A DNA stretch of 64,000 nucleotides from Spirochaetaceae bacterium (GTDB taxonomy: Bacteria; Spirochaetota; Spirochaetia; DSM-27196; PWMO01). The stretch covers positions 1,718-65,717 of the forward strand of contig RECP01000069.1 of NCBI GenBank assembly GCA_007693945.1, in the 5' to 3' direction. Both the position numbers and the translations under genes were made by a program. The notes beneath the pieces were generated by a model that was not told the origin of the DNA, made no database searches, and saw only the letters and a program-made list of their open reading frames with translations. This document shows, one piece after another, positions 28,257 through 38,433 of this stretch. Position 1 is the stretch's first letter; each line of letters begins with the position of its first letter.

Positions 28257-29088
28257 TCAGCCTACCCTCACCTGCGTAATCATCTGCGCCAGTTCGTCTC
28301 CGTCGGCACCGTGCAGACGGCGGTAAGCACCGCCAAAGGTGGCAGCCAGTTCGCGCATAGCACGACTGCCGCGCCGCGATCCGGTGGTATCGATGAACAG
28401 AGGATGAACCTGCAGGCAACTGCTCATCCGGGCCACGGCCTCGATAGTCTGGTGCTCTTCCGGCGGCGAAACGTTTCCCTCCCCGTCGGAAAACACCATC
28501 ACTTCCACCGGTTCTCCGGGTTCACGCATGCGCTGCGTCTCGACCAGCCGCAGTGCGAGGTAGAGCCCGGATGCAAGCGGGGTTGCCCCGCCGAGCGACA
28601 GGTTATCCAGTGCCCGGCGCGCGCGGTCAATCGCCGATGTCGGCTCGAGTGTAACCTCAGCTTCCGTGTCCGCAAAGGTGATCAGCGCCACGCGGTCTTT
28701 GCGCCGTTCCGCGGACGCCAGCAGCGACAGCAGCGCGATGCGCGCGACGTGCAGCTGATTGTGATCGGCCATCGAATCCGAGGTATCGAGCACCAGGATT
28801 ACCGTGTGCCGGTCACGGCGCCGGCGCACCTTGCGCCTGAGATGTGAGCGGTCGACCAGCGATCTGGTGGCTCCGAGCACACGATCCAGCGCCGCCGCCC
28901 GCAGTGTTGCGTCAACCGCCAGGTCCCGCACGGCGCCTTCATGCTTCGGCGGTCGAGCAAAAACGTAACGGCCGCGGCTGGCGGTCGTGCGGCGCGCCCT
29001 TCCGCGACGGCGGCGCAGCCGCAGGATGATGCCGGCCACGGCTGCCTCTACCGCGCGCCGGACTTCCGGCGTGTCGTCATCGGAGAGC
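28257..29088 (-). CDS. chlD: VWA-domain C-terminal half of chelatase subunit ChlD/BchD-like (-1 frame of the upstream ORF)
   Basis: LAVDATLRAAA, MIDAS LDTSDSM, DRVALITF, GGATPLA and SDG motifs. The frame is open back to the A10 run at 29089-29098. Confidence 0.8.
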
Positions 29089-29098
29089 TTTTTTTTTT
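29046..29098 (-). other. Putative programmed -1 frameshift signal (A10G slippery run plus 3' hairpin)
   Basis: The minus strand reads CTC AAA AAA AAA AGC, containing A AAA AAG. It is followed by CGCCGG-AAGT-CCGGCG, which may be enclosed by CTCTCCG/CGGTAGAG. Confidence 0.75.
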
Positions 29099-30262
29099 GA
29101 GAATCGGCAGCAGAATGCTGCCCGCGGCCGCCCCGCCGGGAATCTGCATCGATTCCAGCGCCTCCTCGTCGACTTCATCGGCATCTGCCGCCGTACGGCG
29201 GTCGGCGCTTCCCGCTGCCGGCGCGTCCTTGCGCAGCCCGTCATCCGACCGCAAACGCTCGAGCAGGGCGTCGATTTCGGCGTCGGCTTCCTCGGGAGAA
29301 CGCAGCAGTCGGCCGTCAAAGCGGTGCGGTAGCACAAAACGCGCAGCCTCGAACAGCAGTTCACGGTCGATGGTTTCGCGTTCCAGCAGTGCGGCAAAGG
29401 CCCGGGCGGCTTTCACCAGAGCCAGGTCGGCGCGGTGCCCGGCAACGCCGGCTTCGGAGGCAATCCTGACCGCGTCGTTCAGTAGCTGCGTGGATGCATC
29501 AAGTCGGCTGATCCGTTTGCGCGCCGCAACCACCAGTTCGCGCAGGCGCAAATCCTCCTGCTGCCACTGCCGCAGGAAACGACCCGGGTCGGCTTCAAAA
29601 CTGGTGCGGCGCCGGATGACCTCAACGCGCTCATCCGTTTCGGTCAGTCCGCGCACCGTAACGCACAGCCCAAAGCGGTCCAGGAACTGCGGGCGCAGTT
29701 CACCCTCCTCAGGGTTCATGGTCCCCACCAGGATAAAGCGTGCCGGATGGCGCAGCGAGATTCCTTCGCGTTCGACCACGTTCTCGCCGGAGGTCGCAGC
29801 GTCGAGAAGCAGATCCACCAGATGGTCCTCCAGCAGATTAACCTCGTCGACGTACAGAATGCCGCGGTTGGCCTCAGCCAGCAGTCCGGGTTCAAACCGG
29901 CGCACGCCGGCGGTCAAGGCGTGTTCGATATCGAGCGTGCCGACCAGGCGGTCTTCAGTGGCGCCCAGAGGCAACTCTATCAGTGGAACCGTGACGGTGA
30001 CGGCCTCGGGACGGTTCTCCGTGCGGCAATGATCGCACAGCCCGGCCGGCCGATCGGGGTCGCAGTGGTAGGGACAGCCCGTTACCGCTCGCAGCGGCGG
30101 CAGGAGTTCCCGCAAGGCGCGCACAACAGTGGATTTGGCGGTGCCCTTTTCACCCCTGATCAGCACGCCGCCGAGTGAAGGATCAACCGCCGCGGCCAGA
30201 AGAGCGGTCTTCATGGCAGGCTGGCCGACAACGGCGCTGAACGGGTATCCTGAACTACTCAC
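29048..30262 (-). CDS. chlI: Mg/Co-chelatase AAA+ subunit (ChlI/BchI-like; N-terminal half of chlD)
   Basis: YPFSAVVGQ, GGVLIRGEKGTAKST, LPLGATEDR.VG, GILYVDEVNLL and NPEEGELRPQFLDRFG motifs. Confidence 0.92.
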   Translation of the reverse strand: MSSSGYPFSAVVGQPAMKTALLAAAVDPSLGGVLIRGEKGTAKSTVVRALRELLPPLRAVTGCPYHCDPDRPAGLCDHCRTENRPEAVTVTVPLIELPLGATEDRLVGTLDIEHALTAGVRRFEPGLLAEANRGILYVDEVNLLEDHLVDLLLDAATSGENVVEREGISLRHPARFILVGTMNPEEGELRPQFLDRFGLCVTVRGLTETDERVEVIRRRTSFEADPGRFLRQWQQEDLRLRELVVAARKRISRLDASTQLLNDAVRIASEAGVAGHRADLALVKAARAFAALLERETIDRELLFEAARFVLPHRFDGRLLRSPEEADAEIDALLERLRSDDGLRKDAPAAGSADRRTAADADEVDEEALESMQIPGGAAAGSILLPILKKKSSPMTTRRKSGAR

Positions 30263-30290: not shown

Positions 30291-30692
30291 CTACTGTCTC
30301 ACCACCAGCAGGTTCTGCCTGCGGTTCATGCGGATATGCGTCACCTCGCGATTGCGCTCTGTAACCGTCAGATTGGTGAGAAAATAGACGTCGGGGCTGA
30401 TAGGTCTGACGGCAAAAAAGCTGTTGCCGGCGCTGTTTTGCAGCACGAAGAAGCCGTCCTCCATCCGCCAGGCGTCAAAATCGAGTCCTTCCGCGATTAC
30501 CGTGCCGTCAACGTCGATTTGCAGGTTCCCCTCCGCGCTGACCTCGGTTCGACCGGCGGTGTAGTCGCTCATCGTGTAGTTTGCCAGCTGGTCGATCTGG
30601 TAAACCGTCCAGGCACCGACCATATCTACCTCTTGTGCGGCACTCCATCCTGCCAGCATCAACAATACTGCTCCCATTACCAGCTTTCGCAT
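30291..30692 (-). CDS. Hypothetical secreted protein
   Basis: Signal peptide MRKLVMGAVLLMLAGWSAA, GGAGG RBS and a beta-rich mature part. Confidence 0.75.
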   Translation of the reverse strand: MRKLVMGAVLLMLAGWSAAQEVDMVGAWTVYQIDQLANYTMSDYTAGRTEVSAEGNLQIDVDGTVIAEGLDFDAWRMEDGFFVLQNSAGNSFFAVRPISPDVYFLTNLTVTERNREVTHIRMNRRQNLLVVRQ

Positions 30693-30772
30693 GCTACCTC
30701 CGCGCTCCATACGCACACCGGGAGTGTGGCCGTACCTCGTTTTGTCTAAAGAGTACTACAAAACGGAACGAA

Positions 30773-31816
30773 ATGCACGTCGCACAAAGGTGCTTGTCAC
30801 GTCGGCGTGTCACCGTTACCTTGTCAGGAAAGCGTCGAGCGGCATATCCGTTTGTTCGGAGGCGCCGCGAACTCCGGCCCGGCAGGTGCAGACAGTTGAA
30901 CCGCTCTGGTAACCCCGCCGCTCTGATGGTGGCGTGCGGTCTGGCAGCAACAGTTGTGATCTCGATCAGTATTCTGGCTGCGGCGCACCATTGGAGTCGG
31001 CAGTCGGATGCCGAATACCTGGAGCGATTCGTTGAAACCGGAGCAACGGTGGCGGCCATCGTTGCCCGTGTCGCCGAGCAGTACATCGATGCTCCCGAAC
31101 GCAACCAGATTGAACTGTCGAGCCTTGCCGATGTGGCCGGGCAGCTGCCCGGCGCGCGTGGTTTGACAATTACCGGCGCCGGCAGGAACGCCCCGCGCAA
31201 CTACGAGCATATCTGGGCGTCCAGTGACGGACGCTACCGAGCCGCGGACGGCACGTTGCGCTATGACCCCGGGCGAACGCAGATTCTTGATGAGCTGTCG
31301 AGTGAGATCGGCCGCATCATCGTGGCCGTCAATCACGACGCTGCCGAAACGCTGGCTGAGCTCAACCCGCAGATTGAGGAGGTCACGCGCGGCATAATCC
31401 GGCTGCTGACACAGGAGCAGACCGCCGAACAGGCCGAACTGGCCGAGTTGGACCAGGTGTTCCGCGTTCTCTATCGCCGGGGAAGCAGGCGTCTGGCCGA
31501 AGTCAGCCGGCGACACGCCGGTAGCGTGCCGCCGATTCTCGGGGCGGATCCGGGCTTGATGGAGGATGATGTGCTGTTCTATCATCCGGTCGCGGCCTTT
31601 GACCGCGCCAACGACGCGTGGTATGCCGGCATGGTGCGCTACAGGCGCTCGATCGGGCCGCTGCGCGAGCAGCAGCGACAGGCGCACGCAGAGCACCGTC
31701 GTCGTGCGCTTTCCATCGCGGCGGGTGCGCTCGTGGCACTCTGGGCGCTGCTGGCCCTTGTGTGGGTGCTGTCGAGATCGCTGTCAAGAGCCGGATTTAC
31801 GGAGGACCGTTTGTGA
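30773..31816 (+). CDS. Two-TM membrane protein with a large extracytoplasmic domain
   Basis: Hydrophobic helices near both ends. The stop overlaps the GTG of the next gene (GTGA). Start uncertain (30773 or later). Confidence 0.65.
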   Translation: MHVAQRCLSRRRVTVTLSGKRRAAYPFVRRRRELRPGRCRQLNRSGNPAALMVACGLAATVVISISILAAAHHWSRQSDAEYLERFVETGATVAAIVARVAEQYIDAPERNQIELSSLADVAGQLPGARGLTITGAGRNAPRNYEHIWASSDGRYRAADGTLRYDPGRTQILDELSSEIGRIIVAVNHDAAETLAELNPQIEEVTRGIIRLLTQEQTAEQAELAELDQVFRVLYRRGSRRLAEVSRRHAGSVPPILGADPGLMEDDVLFYHPVAAFDRANDAWYAGMVRYRRSIGPLREQQRQAHAEHRRRALSIAAGALVALWALLALVWVLSRSLSRAGFTEDRL

Positions 31817-33108
31817 CACAGCAGAAAAGAACCATTGCGGCGCGCAGCGATTGCCCGTTCGTGCTCTACAACACGTTCACCCGGCGCCGGGAAGTCTTCC
31901 GGTCACGGGTACCGGGTGAGGTCAAACTGTTTACCTGCGGCCCGTCGGTCTACCGGCGGCCGCACCTCGGTAACTACCGAACCTTTCTCTACGAAGATGT
32001 GCTGCAGCGCTATCTGGAGTATCGCGGGAACCGGGTACACCGCGTGATTGTCGTTACCGATGTTGAGGATAAAGCGCTGGAAGAGGCGCTCAGTCTGGAC
32101 CTCTCGGTGCAGGAGCTGACCGACCGCAACGTCGATTTTTTCCGTCAGGAGTGCGAAGAACTCGGTATCGCCCTGCCCGACACCATGCCGCGTGCTTCTA
32201 CCAGCGTTGACGTTGCCGCGGATCTTATTCAGAGCCTTATCGAGCGCGGCGTTGCCTACCGCCACGGCAACGACGTGTTCTACGATCCGCTGAAGTACTC
32301 GCGCTTTGGAGAACTGTTCGGGCTCGACATGCGTGACTGGCCGGCAGAACGGCGTCGATTCGCTCAGGATACCTATGAGGGCAATCGCTGGAACCGCGGT
32401 GATTTCATTCTGTGGCACGGCTTCCGGAAGGGTGACCAGGTCTGGTGGGATACGCCGCTGGGTAGAGGACGTCCATCGTGGAACGTGCAGGATCCGGCAA
32501 TGTGCGTGCAGCAGGCAGGCTACGAAATCGACATCCACTGTGGGGGCATTGACAATCTCTATCGCCACCACGACTACAACCGCGCGGTCATCGAGGGTGT
32601 CACGGGCACTGAGTTCTGTCACTACTGGCTGCACGGCGAGCACGTGATAGTCGAAGGCAGCAAGATGTCCAAGTCAAAGGGGAACGTGCTTTACCTCGAG
32701 CATATGGCTGAAAGAGGCATCACGCCGCGCGAGGTACGCTTCCTGCTGATCTGCGGTCACTACCGCGACAAGCTCAATATCACTGATCAGCTGATTGACG
32801 AGCGCGTGGCCCTGATCCGCGCGCTGCGTGCCGATGTGGATCTGCTGCTGGCGGATGCGGATGTCCGTGGTGACACGCGGCACCCCGACCCGGCCGTCGA
32901 TGCCATTATCGAAGAGCTGCCCGTATTGTTTGAAACTGCAATGAACGACGACTTGCGCGTGGCCGATGCGGTTCCGGCACTGCGGACGGCGTTAAGGCAG
33001 CTGCGCACGCTAAGCGGTGATCGACCCGTGCCGCCGCCGGCCGCGGTGCGCTTGCGCGCGACGCTGAGCGCTATTGACAGCGTGATCGGTGCGATCTTTG
33101 CGCGCTAA
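31813..33108 (+). CDS. Cysteinyl-tRNA synthetase paralogue lacking the anticodon-binding domain
   Basis: YNT, CGPSVY, HIGH-like HLGN, TDVEDK, DFILW, DIH.GG.D, KMSKS.GN and a DALR-like helix. The Zn ligands are altered. GGAGG RBS before the GTG. Confidence 0.85.
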   Translation: MTQQKRTIAARSDCPFVLYNTFTRRREVFRSRVPGEVKLFTCGPSVYRRPHLGNYRTFLYEDVLQRYLEYRGNRVHRVIVVTDVEDKALEEALSLDLSVQELTDRNVDFFRQECEELGIALPDTMPRASTSVDVAADLIQSLIERGVAYRHGNDVFYDPLKYSRFGELFGLDMRDWPAERRRFAQDTYEGNRWNRGDFILWHGFRKGDQVWWDTPLGRGRPSWNVQDPAMCVQQAGYEIDIHCGGIDNLYRHHDYNRAVIEGVTGTEFCHYWLHGEHVIVEGSKMSKSKGNVLYLEHMAERGITPREVRFLLICGHYRDKLNITDQLIDERVALIRALRADVDLLLADADVRGDTRHPDPAVDAIIEELPVLFETAMNDDLRVADAVPALRTALRQLRTLSGDRPVPPPAAVRLRATLSAIDSVIGAIFAR

Positions 33109-33144: not shown

Positions 33145-35043
33145 TCAATGCTGGAAGTCCTCGCGCGTCGGGATGTCGTGTTTGGTAATCGAACAGAGGA
33201 TCTGGTCGGTCAGAGGCGTGATCGACGAGATCCGGTTGGCCTGTTTCTCGACCGTCTTCTCGAAGAGGTTGCGCACAAAGCGTCCATTGCCGAAGCCCTT
33301 GTCGCGTTTCCTGTAGAACGCGGTCATGATCGCCAACAGTTCGCGCCGCGCCGGTGCGGTCAGGTTGAAGGAAGCGTTGGAAGCAAAAATGTCAAAGATC
33401 TTCAGCAGTTCATCCGGTGCATAGTGGTCGAAGTAGAAGTAGCGGCTAAAGCGGCTCTGCAGGCCGGGATTGGAGTGGATGAAATCGTTCATCTCATCGG
33501 GGTACCCCGCGACTATCACCACCAGCCGATCGCGGTAGTCCTCCATGCGTTTCAGCAGCGTGTCGATTGCTTCCTGGCCAAAATCCTTACCGGCGCCGCG
33601 CGGTGACAGCGTGTAGGCCTCGTCAATGAACAATACTCCGTCGAGCGCTTCGTTGACCACCTCATCGACCTGGATAGCGGTCTGGCCGACGTAGCCGGCC
33701 ACCAGGCCGGCCCGATCGGTCTCCACCATGTGCCCCTTGCGCAGCAGACCAAGGCACTTGTACACCCGCCCCAGGTAGCGCGCGATGGTAGTCTTGCCGG
33801 TTCCCGGCGGGCCGTAGAACACGGCGTGTTTGGAGAACGGCGTCACCGGAAGCCCACGCCGTTCCCGTTCGCTGTGCACCTTGATCACATTTACAAAGGT
33901 GGCGATCTGCTGCTTGACCTTGCTCATGCCGATCAGATCATTGATGATCTCCATCACCTCCTCGAGCGTCTCTTCCTGCTCGTGCTCGGCGATGCGCACG
34001 GTCTGGCGCGCCTGCTTCTTCTCTTCGGCGTCCGAAACCTGCTCCTGATCACCGTAGATCAGCTTTCTGATCTTCTGCAGCTTCTGCGGGCCGTTCTTTG
34101 TCACCGTACCGTCGGCTTTGATGACGCACTGCGCGTAGGTGAAGAACGCGGCCGCCATCTTGTCGAAGTGTGAGCTGTCCTGACGGCGATCGTAGAGATG
34201 GAGGTACTGTAACGACTTGAGCGAAGACGCGCTCACACTGCGCATCTTCTGGATTTCATTGTAGAAAATGTGCCAGTAGGTCAGGATTTCCCGACGGTGA
34301 TGCAGCGGAAGCGAGTCATAACGGAACACGTCGAGCACCAGTTCACGATCCGGAATCAACCTCTGCCGCAGGTACATGAACACCATTGCAATGAAGAGCC
34401 TGGCCTCTTCCGGCGGGTCGTCCTTACCGATGCAGGCAAAGGTCACATAGAAGAGGTCATCGATCATCTGCTGCAGGAAGGCCGGCTCGTTGTTGAACTG
34501 CTTGTACTGGTTGACGGCGCGGATGATCTTGCGCGCTTCGTTGTGCAGAAAATTGAGATTCGCCAGGCGTTCCTCATCCGAACGCGCCCGATTGGCCTCT
34601 TCGGCGGCAATCGAGGCATCCTCGACCACCAGATCGTCGCCGACGCGCGCCTTGAGATGGTCAAGAAACGTACGCGTCAACGTGCTGCGCTTGGTCGAAG
34701 TGAGGACGCTGGTACCTGCACTGTGCTGCAGCGAGATCCGGACCGAACTGTTGCTCCTTTTGGCCTCCACCATCAGCAGATCCTCAAAGCCGATTGTTTC
34801 GGCCGCAGTGGCCGATTTACCGTTGAGCAGGAACATGATGCGCTTGTTGGTGATGCACAGGATTCCGGGGGCGCCGGAGCCCGAGGCGGCCACCTTGTTG
34901 GCGCGATAGAAGCCTTCGAGCACGTCTTCGACCTCTTCATCCTCGTCGAGAACACAATTGAACGTATTGAGGATGTTCTTCTTGAACGAAACGTGCAGCC
35001 AGTTCGCAATGCGGCCCAGCTGAGATTCAAGCTCTTGTCGCAC
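33145..35043 (-). CDS. CbbX/SpoVK-family AAA ATPase with a long N-terminal extension
   Basis: [54 protein letters not shown] and FGNGRFVRN motifs. Confidence 0.88.
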
Positions 35044-35092
35044 TGCCGGTTCCCCTCCAACTCGGCCTGTTCAGCTGATCCCGATTATAGTC

Positions 35093-36769
35093 TCATCGGC
35101 CGGCTTTTGCATCACCGGCGATGTGCATCAGCTGCAAAAGATCGCGGCACGCTCGATGTGCCGACATGTAGGCCGGCGTATTGGGCATGCCGATGATCAC
35201 TCCCAGCCCACTGTGCAGCGTCTCGTGGGTATAGCGCGTGAGCAGCTTCAGGTAGGCTTGCGCGTTGGTGGTTCCGTTGCCGTCGCGCAGCAGCAGCGAC
35301 TCCACATCCAGCGCCCGCGCCAGCCGGCCGATCTGGCGTGTCACCAGCGGGTAGAGAACGCGGATCAACTCCAGAAACCGGGCGTGATACTCCCCGTCGT
35401 GATCGATCAAGTGCGCGATCTGCGATCTGCGATCGCGGACCAGTCGACCGTCGCTTTCGCGCTTGCGCGGTACAACGGCGCTGAACCGCTGTCGCAGGTT
35501 ATCCGAGCGCTGGAGGTTGATCATGGCGGCGTAGAACAGCAGCACGCCGGCTGCCGTGCCGGCCTCATACGGCAATCCGGCGCTGTCGACGCCAGCGATC
35601 TCCTGCAGCAGGGTTCGTACGCGCACCTCCAGCCGTCGGCTGCGGTCCTGGCCCTCGGCGGCGCGTGTCTCAGTGCGCTGTTCCAGCCATTCGAGGTAGT
35701 GCTGACTCTCGGTCAGCGCGCGCAGTGCAGCCTGTCGGGGTCGCGACCGGGCCGCAGCCGCAACCCAACCGTAAAGGGCATAACGCAGTCGCCTGCTTGC
35801 CGCCGCGTCTTCCCCGATAGAGTCACGTTCCAGCCGTAGCCCCACCAGACGCTCGGCGACTTCGGCTACCGATCGGTCGGAAGCCCGCAGCGACATCTCG
35901 CGCAGCATTGCGCGGCGGATACGCATCCGGCTGATAGAGGACGCCCCCACCTCCGGCGGCAGCGGGGGCAGCAGCACGTCTTGAAGCATGTCGAGCAAAC
36001 CGTGAATGCGATATGCCAGCGTGGTTTCGGGTGAATAGCGATGCTGCAACAGGTCCAGCGCGGTATCGTTGGGGACGTAGGCGACGTCCCTGATGCGTTG
36101 TGCTTGCGGTGATTCAAGCTGGAGCTCCCGGGGCACATAGCAGTTGTACTGGGCAATCACCTGAGCCGCCGGCAACCCTTCGTAGGCCTCGGCACTGAAT
36201 CGATTGTGCCACAGAAGAACGCGCAGGTCGGGCGCTATTTCGAGCGCCGCTTTCAGGTATCCGCCTGCCGAAACCTGCGACGTGGGCTCGGGCTGAACCA
36301 CCACCAGTAGCGTCCCGACGCACGGTAGAAAGGCCAGGTTTTCTGCATGACTGATGCCGGCCGGCATGTCGAAAACCACCAGCTCGTAGCGTTGATCCAG
36401 TTCTGCAGCGTAGCGTTCGAAGAGCGCCGTTCTGAGGAGTTGACTCTCCCCGCGCCCCAGCTTCTGACGCGGGAAGAGCAAATCAAACCTGGGAAACAGC
36501 GACAGGGAGTAACTGCTCAGCGATTCAAGCGAAGCGTCGATCTGCTCGGGGATGCTGTCCAGGGTGCTCCGGGCAAGATCCAGGATCACGGCGATATTGG
36601 ACAACGGGTCGAGATCCACCAGGGCAACACGGATGCCGTTGCGGGCGCATAACAGGGCAAGATTGAGGGCTGTGGTCGACTTTCCCACGCCGCCCTTGCC
36701 CGATCCGACCGCGACACTTTTGCGTACCAGCGAGGCGTGCGCCGCCGGTCGCCGTTCAACACTCTGCAT
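35093..36769 (-). CDS. MinD/ParA/FlhG-family P-loop ATPase with a large C-terminal extension
   Basis: Deviant Walker A SGKGGVGKST, LVDLD, FDMPAG and PEPTS motifs. Confidence 0.8.
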   Translation of the reverse strand: MQSVERRPAAHASLVRKSVAVGSGKGGVGKSTTALNLALLCARNGIRVALVDLDPLSNIAVILDLARSTLDSIPEQIDASLESLSSYSLSLFPRFDLLFPRQKLGRGESQLLRTALFERYAAELDQRYELVVFDMPAGISHAENLAFLPCVGTLLVVVQPEPTSQVSAGGYLKAALEIAPDLRVLLWHNRFSAEAYEGLPAAQVIAQYNCYVPRELQLESPQAQRIRDVAYVPNDTALDLLQHRYSPETTLAYRIHGLLDMLQDVLLPPLPPEVGASSISRMRIRRAMLREMSLRASDRSVAEVAERLVGLRLERDSIGEDAAASRRLRYALYGWVAAAARSRPRQAALRALTESQHYLEWLEQRTETRAAEGQDRSRRLEVRVRTLLQEIAGVDSAGLPYEAGTAAGVLLFYAAMINLQRSDNLRQRFSAVVPRKRESDGRLVRDRRSQIAHLIDHDGEYHARFLELIRVLYPLVTRQIGRLARALDVESLLLRDGNGTTNAQAYLKLLTRYTHETLHSGLGVIIGMPNTPAYMSAHRACRDLLQLMHIAGDAKAGR

Positions 36770-36873
36770 CGTGCTCAGTATAGCCAAATGCGTGCTCCTC
36801 GCAATACCATTTCGCCAATCACGCCCGACGGCGATATATTGTAGCCAGGAAGGAGTACAGGAGGATACGTGAT

Positions 36874-38433
36874 ATGGCACGCAACGGATGGCGCACCGCA
36901 TTCTGGGTGTTGCTGAGTGCGGTATTACTACTGGCTATTGGTTTTTCTCTTGGAAGGTCCTACAATCAGGCAGCCGGCGCCGTGCCGGTTACGGGTTTAA
37001 CGCGCGCTGAAGCCGGCGGACACCTTACCGTTTCCGGATCGCAGACACTCGAACGCACTGCAGACCAACCGGTACAGCCGGCTCCGCTTGCTGACCCCCG
37101 GCCGACAAACGCGCCGCTCTCGTTTCGCACGGTCGCTGAGAATGTGTTGCCGGTTGTTGTCGAAGTCAACACCGTTGAGGTGATTCGGCAGAGCGTCCCG
37201 CGCTTCCCTTCGCCGTGGGAGTTTTTCTTTGGTCCACGTGAGCAGCCGGAACCGCAGGAGCGCGAGTTCCGCAGGCCGGGACTGGGTTCGGGCGTGCTTG
37301 TACGCCGTGACGGCACCACTGTCTACGTGCTTACCAACGCACACGTGGTTGGCGATGCCCGCGAGATCAGTCTCAGGTTGTTTGACGGACGCGAGTTTGA
37401 GGCCGAGATCGTGGGCAAGGATTCGCGCACTGACCTGGCACTGATCCGTTTTGAGTCGCGCGAAGAAGTTCCGCTTGCCCGGCTGGGGGACTCCGATTCG
37501 CTGCATGTCGGAGACTGGGTCGTTGCGGTCGGTAATCCGCTGGGCTTCGAATCTACGGTGACCGCGGGAATCGTCAGCGCCCTGGGCCGCAGACCTCAGC
37601 CTGGTTCACCGATCGCCGGGTTTACCGACTACATCCAGACCGACGCCTCAATCAATCCGGGGAACTCCGGCGGGGCGCTGGCCGACATCCATGGAGAGAT
37701 CGTCGGCATCAACACCTGGATTGCATCTCGCGGCGGAGGCAGCGTCGGGCTGGGCTTCGCAATACCGATCAACAACGCCAAACGGGCAATTGACGACTTC
37801 ATCGAGCAGGGGCGCATTATCTACGGCTGGCTCGGGGTCTCAATCCAGGACGTCAGCCCGCAGATTACCCCGGGGCTGGCGCAGGATCTGGGGATTGAAG
37901 GCCAATCCGGGGCGCTGGTCATCAACGTCCACCGTGATTCACCCGCCGCACGCGCCGGCATCAGACCGGGGGACTTTGTGACGCAGATTGACGACACGTC
38001 GATTACCGACACAGCCCAGATGACGCGGGTGATCGGCAACCTCGCACCGGGCCGCCGTGCCGTGTTTACCCTGAAACGCGCCGGCCGGGAGATGACCATC
38101 GGCGTGACCCTCGACAGCCGGGGTACCGAGGACGAAGTGGCCGCTCCAGCGGGCATGTGGCCGGGAATGGCGATTGTACCGCTTAGCGAGACAATGCGCG
38201 AGGCGCGCGACATTGAAGAGGCTATCGACGGCGTGCTGGTGGCCTCGGTACTACAGGATGGACCGGCCGCAATTGCCGGCTTACGCAACGGTGACGTAAT
38301 CACCCAGGTCAACGGTACTGCCGTGCGCGCGGCGCGCGACTTCTACCGCGCGCTGGCCGGCGCGTCGGGCGAAATCCTGTTCCGCGTAAACCGTCAGGGT
38401 GTACGGATTGTCGTAGGGATGGACGCGTTGTAA
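36874..38433 (+). CDS. htrA: HtrA/DegP (Do) serine protease with two PDZ domains
   Basis: GLGSGV, LTNAHVV, DLAL, GNPLG, IQTDASINPGNSGGAL and two PDZ repeats; N-terminal membrane anchor. Confidence 0.93.
   Translation: MARNGWRTAFWVLLSAVLLLAIGFSLGRSYNQAAGAVPVTGLTRAEAGGHLTVSGSQTLERTADQPVQPAPLADPRPTNAPLSFRTVAENVLPVVVEVNTVEVIRQSVPRFPSPWEFFFGPREQPEPQEREFRRPGLGSGVLVRRDGTTVYVLTNAHVVGDAREISLRLFDGREFEAEIVGKDSRTDLALIRFESREEVPLARLGDSDSLHVGDWVVAVGNPLGFESTVTAGIVSALGRRPQPGSPIAGFTDYIQTDASINPGNSGGALADIHGEIVGINTWIASRGGGSVGLGFAIPINNAKRAIDDFIEQGRIIYGWLGVSIQDVSPQITPGLAQDLGIEGQSGALVINVHRDSPAARAGIRPGDFVTQIDDTSITDTAQMTRVIGNLAPGRRAVFTLKRAGREMTIGVTLDSRGTEDEVAAPAGMWPGMAIVPLSETMREARDIEEAIDGVLVASVLQDGPAAIAGLRNGDVITQVNGTAVRAARDFYRALAGASGEILFRVNRQGVRIVVGMDAL

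Follow-up and report, generated by a model that had tools for sequence, protein, structure and literature searches.

The window analysed here, a stretch of 64,000 nucleotides from a Spirochaetaceae bacterium (GenBank assembly GCA_007693945.1, contig RECP01000069.1, positions 1,718 to 65,717 of the forward strand), encodes on its plus strand, at 31813..33108, a 431-residue paralogue of cysteinyl-tRNA synthetase (CysRS), designated P0001. The gene is intact and under purifying selection, and its product is not the housekeeping CysRS, because a canonical cysS stands elsewhere in the same genome and all 17 paralogue-bearing genomes checked are alike in this respect. By its motifs and phylogeny, the protein belongs to a distinct, conserved family, an offshoot of CysRS that is carried in databases under the labels of tRNA ligase or CysRS. 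As to function, a tentative reading, which falls a little short of an even chance, is that the paralogue is a working accessory ligase that would activate cysteine or one of its close analogues at a retained metal site and choose its acceptor without the anticodon. Literature searches returned no paper describing the family, although papers outside their scope could exist.

The gene and its product

The open reading frame (ORF) is uninterrupted at the coordinates first proposed for it. The GTG at 31813 is better supported as the start than an alternative GTG at 31618, from which a protein of 496 residues would be read, because a Shine-Dalgarno-like GGAGGA (31801..31806, plus strand; a direct reading of the letters) lies 7 nucleotides 5′ of it and because it shares four nucleotides (GTGA) with the TGA stop of the upstream ORF. 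The 431-residue protein scores 241 bits against the Pfam model of the CysRS catalytic domain (PF01406). The nearest NCBIfam model is TIGR00435 (cysS), where its 282.1 bits remain under the curated equivalog cut-off of 340, and its 185.3 bits against the MshC model TIGR03447 lie far under that model's cut-off of 485.1. An AlphaFold2 (AF2) model built from a 28-row alignment (predicted local distance difference test, pLDDT, 88.5; predicted template modelling score, pTM, 0.90) has its best PDB matches among CysRS structures (query template modelling score, TMq, 0.84 for 8qhp, 0.81 for 6ujd and 0.80 for 1u0b), with MshC lower at 0.76–0.79 (8hfn, 0.79; 3c8z, 0.76).

Comparison of the window gene with six orthologues by the Nei-Gojobori method gave ratios of nonsynonymous to synonymous substitution (dN/dS) of 0.08–0.15, with 0.125 and 0.053 for the two pairs with unsaturated dS; the overall range is 0.05–0.18. 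The preliminary description of this DNA, made from the sequence alone, had argued that the unusual substitutions in the protein were concerted and not a product of decay; the intact ORF, these ratios and the retention of GRP.WN.QD and HHDY(N/T) in 121 of 121 family proteins agree with that view. The gene is neither the only cysS of its genome nor the sole bearer of its substitutions, and dN/dS is not near 1.

The canonical cysS that had been suggested as a check was found on contig C89 of the window's genome, an assembly of 3.73 Mb in 140 contigs that is 86% complete. It encodes 471 residues with HIGN, WHLEC, HHTNE, KMSKS and a C-terminal domain, scores 486.2 bits against TIGR00435 and is 32% identical to the paralogue. 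The 16 other genomes in which a canonical gene was seen beside the paralogue comprise five named or metagenome-assembled genomes reached via their loci, G368 and ten Spirochaetota genomes; in these ten, the canonical gene scores 452–501 bits against TIGR00435 and the paralogue 259–313 bits.

Rebuilt pocket and putative metal site

Motif counts given here refer to 121 proteins of 397–479 residues, namely P0001 and the 120 best homologues listed from a protein search, and E. coli equivalents come from aligning the family profile with HMMER to the chain of PDB 1li5, which is numbered from residue 1. The first putative metal ligand, Cys42 (equivalent to E. coli Cys28), opens the motif C42-GPSVY47 (31936..31953, plus strand); CGPS.Y is present in 121/121 proteins, and Ser45 is family-specific, with Thr at that position in canonical CysRS. 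Both class I ATP signatures are kept. The HIGH-type signature reads H51-LGN54 (31963..31974, plus strand) and takes the H-x-G-N form (H.GN in 120/121) that is also common to the canonical CysRS of Spirochaetota examined, and the second signature reads K284-MSKS288 (32662..32676, plus strand), with KMSKS in 95 of the proteins and another form of xMS[KR]S in the other 26. All three motifs had been called intact beforehand, and P0001 does contain them.

The remaining pocket motifs are changed. In place of WH(I/L)EC the paralogue has W223-NVQD227 (32479..32493, plus strand), preceded by GRPS, and in place of HHENE it has H252-HDYN256 (32566..32580, plus strand), preceded by YR. Relative to 1li5, W205, H234 and H235 are retained as W223, H252 and H253, whereas H206, E208, C209, E236, N237 and E238 are replaced by N224, Q226, D227, D254, Y255 and N256, respectively. 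The exchanges of GRPGWHIEC for GRPSWNVQD and of FPHHENE for YRHHDYN that had been read beforehand are thus confirmed, with Asp and Asn at the positions of Cys209 and Glu238. They are characteristic of the family: GRP.WN.QD occurs in 121/121 proteins (64 NVQD, 55 NIQD, one NLQD and one NAQD), HHDYN in 113 and HHDYT in eight, and N224, Q226 and D227 are each found in 100% of family and 0% of canonical sequences (37 versus 22 sequences).

Newberry and colleagues reportedly found in 2002 that zinc in E. coli CysRS is bound by Cys28, Cys209, His234 and Glu238. In the paralogue family, Cys42, Asp227 and His252 are three potential metal ligands, invariant in a 28-sequence alignment, and Asn or Thr takes the place of the fourth ligand of canonical CysRS. 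Because the first three do not vary, the protein probably retains a metal site; a site composed of Cys, Asp and His is still able to bind a thiolate.

A different rearrangement was seen in two other CysRS representatives, P0164 (462 residues) and P0142 (858 residues), which carry WH[IV]ED and HHEC and so have Asp where E. coli has Cys209 and Cys where it has Asn237; the pattern looks like a zinc ligand swapped to a neighbouring site.

Domain architecture

Domain limits were taken from the secondary structure of the AF2 model, and positions were called family-specific when conserved in at least 90% of 37 family sequences with a residue present in at most 10% of 22 canonical ones. Sixty-two positions are conserved in family and canonical sequences alike, including the ATP signatures, C42, W223, H252 and H253. 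Of the 28 family-specific positions, seven belong to the pocket motifs (N224, Q226, D227, P228, R251, D254 and Y255), six are in other parts of the Rossmann core and 15 fall within the remodelled connective polypeptide (CP1; residues 126–222, 32188..32478, plus strand), where they span residues 135–202 and include W176, P177, G190, W193 and H202. The stem-contact fold and the helix bundle contain none of them in the 37 and 22 sequences compared. Mean pairwise identities, which are rough given the unequal numbers and taxonomic breadth of the two sets, are 0.57 in the family and 0.53 in canonical CysRS for the N-terminal part of the Rossmann core, 0.63 and 0.52 for CP1, 0.66 and 0.69 for the C-terminal part of the Rossmann core, 0.37 and 0.40 for the stem-contact fold, and 0.29 and 0.26 for the helix bundle. 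Isoelectric point does not discriminate (6.45 in the family, 5.85 in canonical CysRS), and neither does net charge.

The stem-contact fold and helix bundle occupy residues 301–431 (32713..33105, plus strand), with helices at 325–346, 360–377, 383–400 and 408–425 in the AF2 model, and there the protein ends, without the C-terminal alpha/beta domain that reads the anticodon. Its last residue corresponds approximately to E. coli residue 397; the family profile covers residues 1–394 of the 461 of 1li5, and the genome's own canonical CysRS extends about 60 residues beyond the end of the paralogue. The residues reported to read the anticodon, Arg427, Trp432, Asp436 and Arg439, sit in the missing C-terminal part (PMC13449415). 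The preliminary description had denied the protein any anticodon-binding domain; this holds for the C-terminal reading part but is too strong as worded, since the helix bundle, which AARS Online classes as a CysRS anticodon-binding domain (PMC11580382), is kept. The family profile aligns to CysRS chains over positions 8–417, through the helix bundle, but to MshC only as far as position 335.

Extent and distribution of the family

The 120 best homologues listed share 48–100% identity with P0001, the closest family member being 81% identical, and the few that bear a name are labelled either "class I tRNA ligase family protein", which is also the label of the ESM Atlas cluster, or "cysteinyl-tRNA synthetase". 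A scan of a one-genome-per-species collection with two family motifs (GxRWN[LR]GDF and [IV]DNx[YWF]RHHD) gave at least 600 matching stretches, among which at least 508 encode a relative. Going by record titles, 57 of the best 80 loci come from Spirochaetota, 21 from Desulfobacterota or "delta proteobacteria" and two from elsewhere. Cultured carriers, again going by record title or source name, are Desulforhabdus amnigena, Desulfoferrobacter suflitae and "Candidatus Marispirochaeta associata".

Profile scores in 251 sampled Spirochaetota genomes fall into two groups, one of 592–684 bits (the paralogue) and one of 370–410 bits (canonical H-x-G-N CysRS). The higher-scoring group occurs in 12 of the 251 genomes, that of the window included, all from four family codes; the paralogue is therefore patchy within the phylum. 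The protein of the window carries CGPS.Y, H.GN, GRP.WN.QD, RHHDY(N/T) and xMS[KR]S, lacks the C-terminal domain and falls inside the family's clade.

Nearest relatives

A first tree of 61 rows (37 family members, 22 canonical CysRS and the CysRS domains of two cysteine-synthase fusions) placed 37/37 family rows on one side of a branch with a Shimodaira-Hasegawa-like approximate likelihood-ratio test (SH-aLRT) support of 100. The two parts of the family's stem branch sum to about two changes per site, and spirochaete members are spread over at least two subclades, mixed with members from Desulfobacterota. In a second tree of 56 rows, for which 28 of 109 long canonical representatives were taken and from which P0224 (long branch) and P0136 (apparent frameshift) were left out, the family (17/17) again formed a single clade with SH-aLRT 100. 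There, P0152 is its neighbour and the group P0150/P0160/P0187 lies close by.

A search of 1.84 billion representatives returned few family clusters at 50% identity (P0131–P0134, P0137 and fragments), followed by a gradient of H-x-G-N CysRS. The short relatives P0150, P0160, P0187 and P0152 (405–413 residues) end where the family ends. Three of them stem from the DPANN group (P0150, Micrarchaeia; P0160, "ainarchaeum"; P0187, Micrarchaeota), and P0152 is metagenomic; P0150 and P0160 are labelled cysteine--tRNA ligase and P0187 class I tRNA ligase family protein. CGPSVY, TDVEDKA and DNI(F/Y).HH are common to the family and to P0150, P0152 and P0160; in place of the family's WN.QD and HHDY(N/T), however, these short enzymes have WHIEC (P0150 and P0152) or WSIEC (P0160), together with HHENE or HHDNE. 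Because P0152 (369.5 bits) and P0150 (392.8 bits) pass the TIGR00435 cut-off of 340, C-terminal loss alone does not explain the low cysS score of the family. The loss of the C-terminal domain may have preceded the change in the pocket.

Beside or inside the family stands P0224 (430 residues), a degenerate offshoot with SGPG for CGPS, VHLGQ, CIQEP and no KMSKS, which may be a non-catalytic derivative. Another departure from canonical CysRS occurs in Desulfobacterota, where a cysteine synthase (PALP) is fused in frame to a CysRS-like body in proteins of 725–809 residues (L091, L092, L098, L099 and L134:511-2688). None of these five fusions has a HIGH or KMSKS match; those of L091, L092 and L134 keep the zinc-site motifs and those of L098 and L099 read WHIAA and PHLEN, and the L134 fusion is also without the C-terminal domain. 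A second match of the fusion type was present in most of 121 Desulfobacterales genomes sampled.

Proposed function

In the first step of the proposed reaction, ATP would be bound through H-x-G-N and xMSKS and an aminoacyl-adenylate would form, as the conservation of both motifs suggests. The amino acid would be held in a rebuilt pocket with the three invariant metal ligands Cys42, Asp227 and His252, and because these are kept, with Asn or Thr at the fourth position, the substrate would most likely be cysteine or a close small analogue bound through the metal. In the second step, the aminoacyl group would be passed to an acceptor chosen without reading of an anticodon. Quite possibly, though with slightly less than an even chance, this acceptor is a tRNA or another RNA, loaded at its 3′ end, with an acceptor-end identity unlike that read by canonical CysRS; a small amine, as used by MshC, would be a less likely partner, and something else again a somewhat less likely one still. 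It is improbable, though worth considering, that the enzyme activates a non-cysteine substrate, for example a hydroxy, seleno, persulfide or homologous thiol amino acid, at a Cys/Asp/His metal site and loads it onto a tRNA or RNA recognised solely by the acceptor end.

On sequence grounds, a tRNA appears at least as likely an acceptor as a small molecule, because conservation of the stem-contact fold and helix bundle is on a level with that in CysRS and the nearest relatives are short CysRS. Genes of the aminoacyl-tRNA synthetase (aaRS) type often stand alone, and the lack of a conserved neighbour cluster beside the paralogue was therefore counted in favour of a tRNA-type acceptor. An RNA is favoured further because the sequence is CysRS-like through the helix bundle, as that of MshC is not, and because the changes outside the pocket lie in CP1, which is said to read the acceptor stem's first base pair (PMC5389517).

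Several observations weigh against the proposed accessory ligase or its preference for RNA. No tRNA adjoins the paralogue in the 52 of 80 loci scanned, in which two ordinary tRNAs lie more than 4 kb away, and the 32 tRNAs recovered from the 86% complete assembly of the window's genome, a low number, include neither an odd tRNA nor a tRNA-Sec call. The remodelled CP1 has gained invariant residues (Trp, Tyr, Asp and Arg) that would fit a small polar acceptor as well, and MshC is a precedent for a CysRS relative that has lost the use of tRNA. Stress and redox genes (OsmC-hydrolase, Hsp33, Lon, rubrerythrin, Fpg, CMD, Usp and Hsp20) are found nearby in several lineages; being few and without a background comparison, they give a weak hint of a protective-thiol pathway. 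Five of the ten paralogue matches in the ten Spirochaetota genomes were flagged with one internal stop, which is taken to be the terminal stop; the open frames are full-length in four (417–441 residues), and that of G338 has 704 residues. The phylogenetic and comparative support is likewise tempered by the roughness of the domain-identity ratios, by the partial sampling of canonical sequences in the second tree, by the SH-aLRT of 92 for P0152 as neighbour, under the mark of 95, and by the status of the short DPANN enzymes, which are CysRS by annotation alone. Taken overall, the preliminary description was right about a paralogue with concerted, selected substitutions and no C-terminal reader; its suggestions of another amino acid, another metal and a non-tRNA acceptor are, by comparison, conjectural.

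Comparison with known enzymes

The paralogue resembles canonical CysRS in its Rossmann core, CP1, stem-contact fold and helix bundle (TMq 0.84 to 8qhp and 0.80 to 1u0b) and in keeping HxGN, KMSKS, the first Cys ligand, Trp205 and His234. It differs in having Asp for Cys209 and Asn or Thr for Glu238, in the changes at His206, Glu208 and Asn237, in its rebuilt CP1 and absent C-terminal reader, in its TIGR00435 score (282 bits against a cut-off of 340) and in standing beside a canonical cysS in 17/17 genomes. The short CysRS P0150, P0160 and P0152 have the same length (408–413 residues) and C-terminal end point and are the nearest neighbours in the tree, but retain WHIEC or WSIEC and HHENE or HHDNE where the family has WN.QD and HHDY(N/T).

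MshC, the cysteine:GlcN-inositol ligase of mycothiol synthesis (PDB 3c8z, 8hfm), is likewise derived from CysRS, measures about 410 residues, has no anticodon reader and uses adenylate chemistry, and it provides the precedent for a non-tRNA acceptor. Unlike the paralogue family, MshC keeps the second Cys ligand. It occurs in Actinomycetota, whereas the family occurs in Spirochaetota and Desulfobacterota, and no mshA, mshB or mshD was seen among the scanned neighbours, a whole-genome search for them not being part of the analysis. A 2022 review names two CysRS paralogues, MshC and CysRS* (PMC9437257).

CysRS* is described as a second CysRS that a subgroup of Desulfobacterales encodes behind selC* and selB*, lacking the anticodon-binding domain and carrying PTVS in CP1 (PMC5389517, PMC7609411). 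The paralogue shares with it the absence of an anticodon-binding domain, changes in CP1 and, on the proposed reading, possible recognition of a tRNA by its acceptor stem, which is what is reported for CysRS* (PMC5389517). The selC*/selB* context and PTVS are found in neither the family's loci nor its proteins, and by this context and reported motif the two are set apart; the portions of the published description that deal with CysRS* mention no change in the zinc site (PMC5389517). A looser analogy, and a model of how the family might operate, is offered by GluQRS (YadB, the glutamyl-queuosine tRNA-Asp synthetase), a truncated class I paralogue that acts on tRNA without anticodon reading (PMC9437257); it is derived from GluRS, however, has lost its whole C-terminal half and does not have a rebuilt pocket.

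Alternative explanations

An unlikely but serious alternative is a tRNA-independent ligase of the MshC kind, which would join cysteine or an analogue to a small-molecule amine such as a sugar amine, a polyamine or a cofactor precursor, for example in making a putative low-molecular-weight thiol of anaerobic Spirochaetota and Desulfobacterota. The design is the same (about 410–430 residues, no C-terminal anticodon reader), the folds match at TMq 0.76–0.79, and CP1 is the domain most conserved relative to canonical CysRS (0.63 versus 0.52), with Trp, Tyr and Arg frequent among its 15 family-specific positions. It is also plausible that such organisms have a gap in their thiol biochemistry, given that in a halophilic spirochaete genome glutathione synthesis was reported as apparently absent and CoA as the main thiol (PMC4511686), and OsmC-hydrolase, Hsp33, rubrerythrin, Fpg, CMD, Usp and Hsp20 genes stand near the paralogue in several lineages. 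These redox neighbours are, however, few, lineage-specific and without background comparison; the genes adjoining the paralogue include no recurrent glycosyltransferase, deacetylase or acetyltransferase, neighbour clusters reach at most 14 of 81 loci and no fused forms are found. Moreover, the TIGR03447 score (185 bits against a cut-off of 485) and an alignment to MshC that stops at position 335, in a sequence that is CysRS-like through the helix bundle, argue against an MshC-type enzyme. A back-up CysRS is less probable still. Such an enzyme would make Cys-tRNA-Cys under stress with a metal site made oxidation-resistant or zinc-sparing by Asp in place of one Cys, and the invariant Cys/Asp/His triad, the stress genes near the paralogue in some lineages and the close kinship with short CysRS that have an intact zinc site and score past the cysS cut-off would all suit it, as would the report that an engineered CysRS without the anticodon domain worked in vivo (PMC5389517). 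Against it, seven pocket positions have changed together and not a ligand alone, CP1 has been rebuilt, the stem branch is long (about two changes per site), its distribution is scattered (12 of the 251 Spirochaetota genomes sampled), and the score lies under the cysS cut-off though the equally short P0152 and P0150 pass it.

Two further readings have very little probability. The first equates the paralogue with CysRS* as described by Mukai et al. (2016), a synthetase dedicated to selC*, a tRNA-Sec-like tRNA-Cys(UCA) working with SelB*; CysRS* likewise is reported from Desulfobacterota with no anticodon-binding domain and with CP1 changes (PMC5389517, PMC7609411). Yet PTVS is present at the CP1 site in 0/121 family proteins, which have FG.[LIV][FY][GR]LD there instead; the G1 motif is found in 0/995 neighbouring ORFs, no tRNA adjoins the gene in the 52 loci scanned, and in the window's genome every SelB match stays under the cut-off (best score 96 bits versus 242) and no tRNA-Sec is called. 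An example of CysRS* itself was sought in 121 Desulfobacterales genomes and in five genomes with three matches each, which gave only canonical cysS, the paralogue family and CysK fusions. As remote is the suggestion of a non-catalytic relic or a regulatory pseudo-enzyme comparable to HisZ. Degenerate P0224, standing beside the family without the Cys ligand and both ATP signatures, would be a step in that direction, but H.GN is kept in 120/121 proteins, that of the window included, and xMS[KR]S in 121/121, dN/dS is 0.05–0.18, and 62 conserved positions are common to the family and active CysRS.

Significance

Earlier aaRS offshoots have each opened an area of biology: mycothiol came to light through MshC, a tRNA modification through GluQRS and UGA recoding through CysRS*. 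Once found, the amino acid and acceptor of the present paralogue could point to a stress CysRS, to a tRNA-dependent pathway not described before or to a novel protective thiol or cofactor in anaerobes. Were a non-cysteine amino acid to be loaded on RNA, it would amount to a new aminoacyl-RNA for a non-ribosomal pathway, or to a deliberate recoding route, in anaerobic Spirochaetota and Desulfobacterota. Naming the activity would also correct a widespread annotation, the one-genome-per-species collection alone holding at least 508 matching stretches, and because there are cultured carriers the question is directly testable.

Genomic neighbourhood and tRNA content

The neighbourhood set comprised 995 ORFs within 8 kb of the gene in 81 loci, which were clustered; the target ORF itself was recovered in 73 of these loci. 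No neighbour is conserved, the commonest clusters being present in 14, 13, 12 and 11 loci and including an ABC ATPase, a ParA-like protein and an AMP-binding enzyme. A Pfam scan of 28 cluster representatives and of 40 of 60 close same-strand neighbours, the other 20 of which belong to clusters already scanned, found no recurring partner, and arrangements are lineage-specific. The 995 ORFs contained no translational-GTPase G1 motif.

Immediately upstream in the window lies an ORF with hydrophobic segments at both its N and C termini (30581..31816, plus strand; start uncertain), which has no Pfam match and is probably co-transcribed with the paralogue. Homologues of it stand upstream of the paralogue in L006, L007, L008 and L012 only; because it recurs only in these closest relatives, it is probably not part of the mechanism. 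Farther upstream, on the minus strand (28257-30262), a VWA-domain protein (260 residues) and a Mg-chelatase/MoxR-like AAA+ protein (404 residues) form an adjacent pair that recurs upstream in L006 and L007 and appears as a single ORF of 661 residues in L009. Downstream, also on the minus strand (33145-36901), a 632-residue protein that combines a bacterial PH domain with a CbxX-type AAA+ module is followed by a ParA/MinD-like ATPase of 602 residues, a pair that is syntenic in several Spirochaetaceae loci. A small protein without assigned function is also among the neighbours in the window.

No credible Rfam element was found between 28 and 37 kb of the window, and no fused form of the paralogue emerged from a search for longer proteins, whose nine matches are all cysteine synthase-CysRS fusions of at most 35% identity. 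The window sequence is present in soda-lake DNA runs only, with no RNA dataset containing the stretch among the runs listed. The 32 tRNAs recovered from the genome include one ordinary tRNA-Cys(GCA) with G1:C72 and U73; discriminator bases taken from ARAGORN output are unreliable in general, owing to inconsistent gene ends. ARAGORN also made two long "tRNA-Thr" calls in this genome, C31:10880-10976 (97 nucleotides) and C128:37027-37118 (92 nucleotides), which have mismatched acceptor and T stems and are probably false positives.

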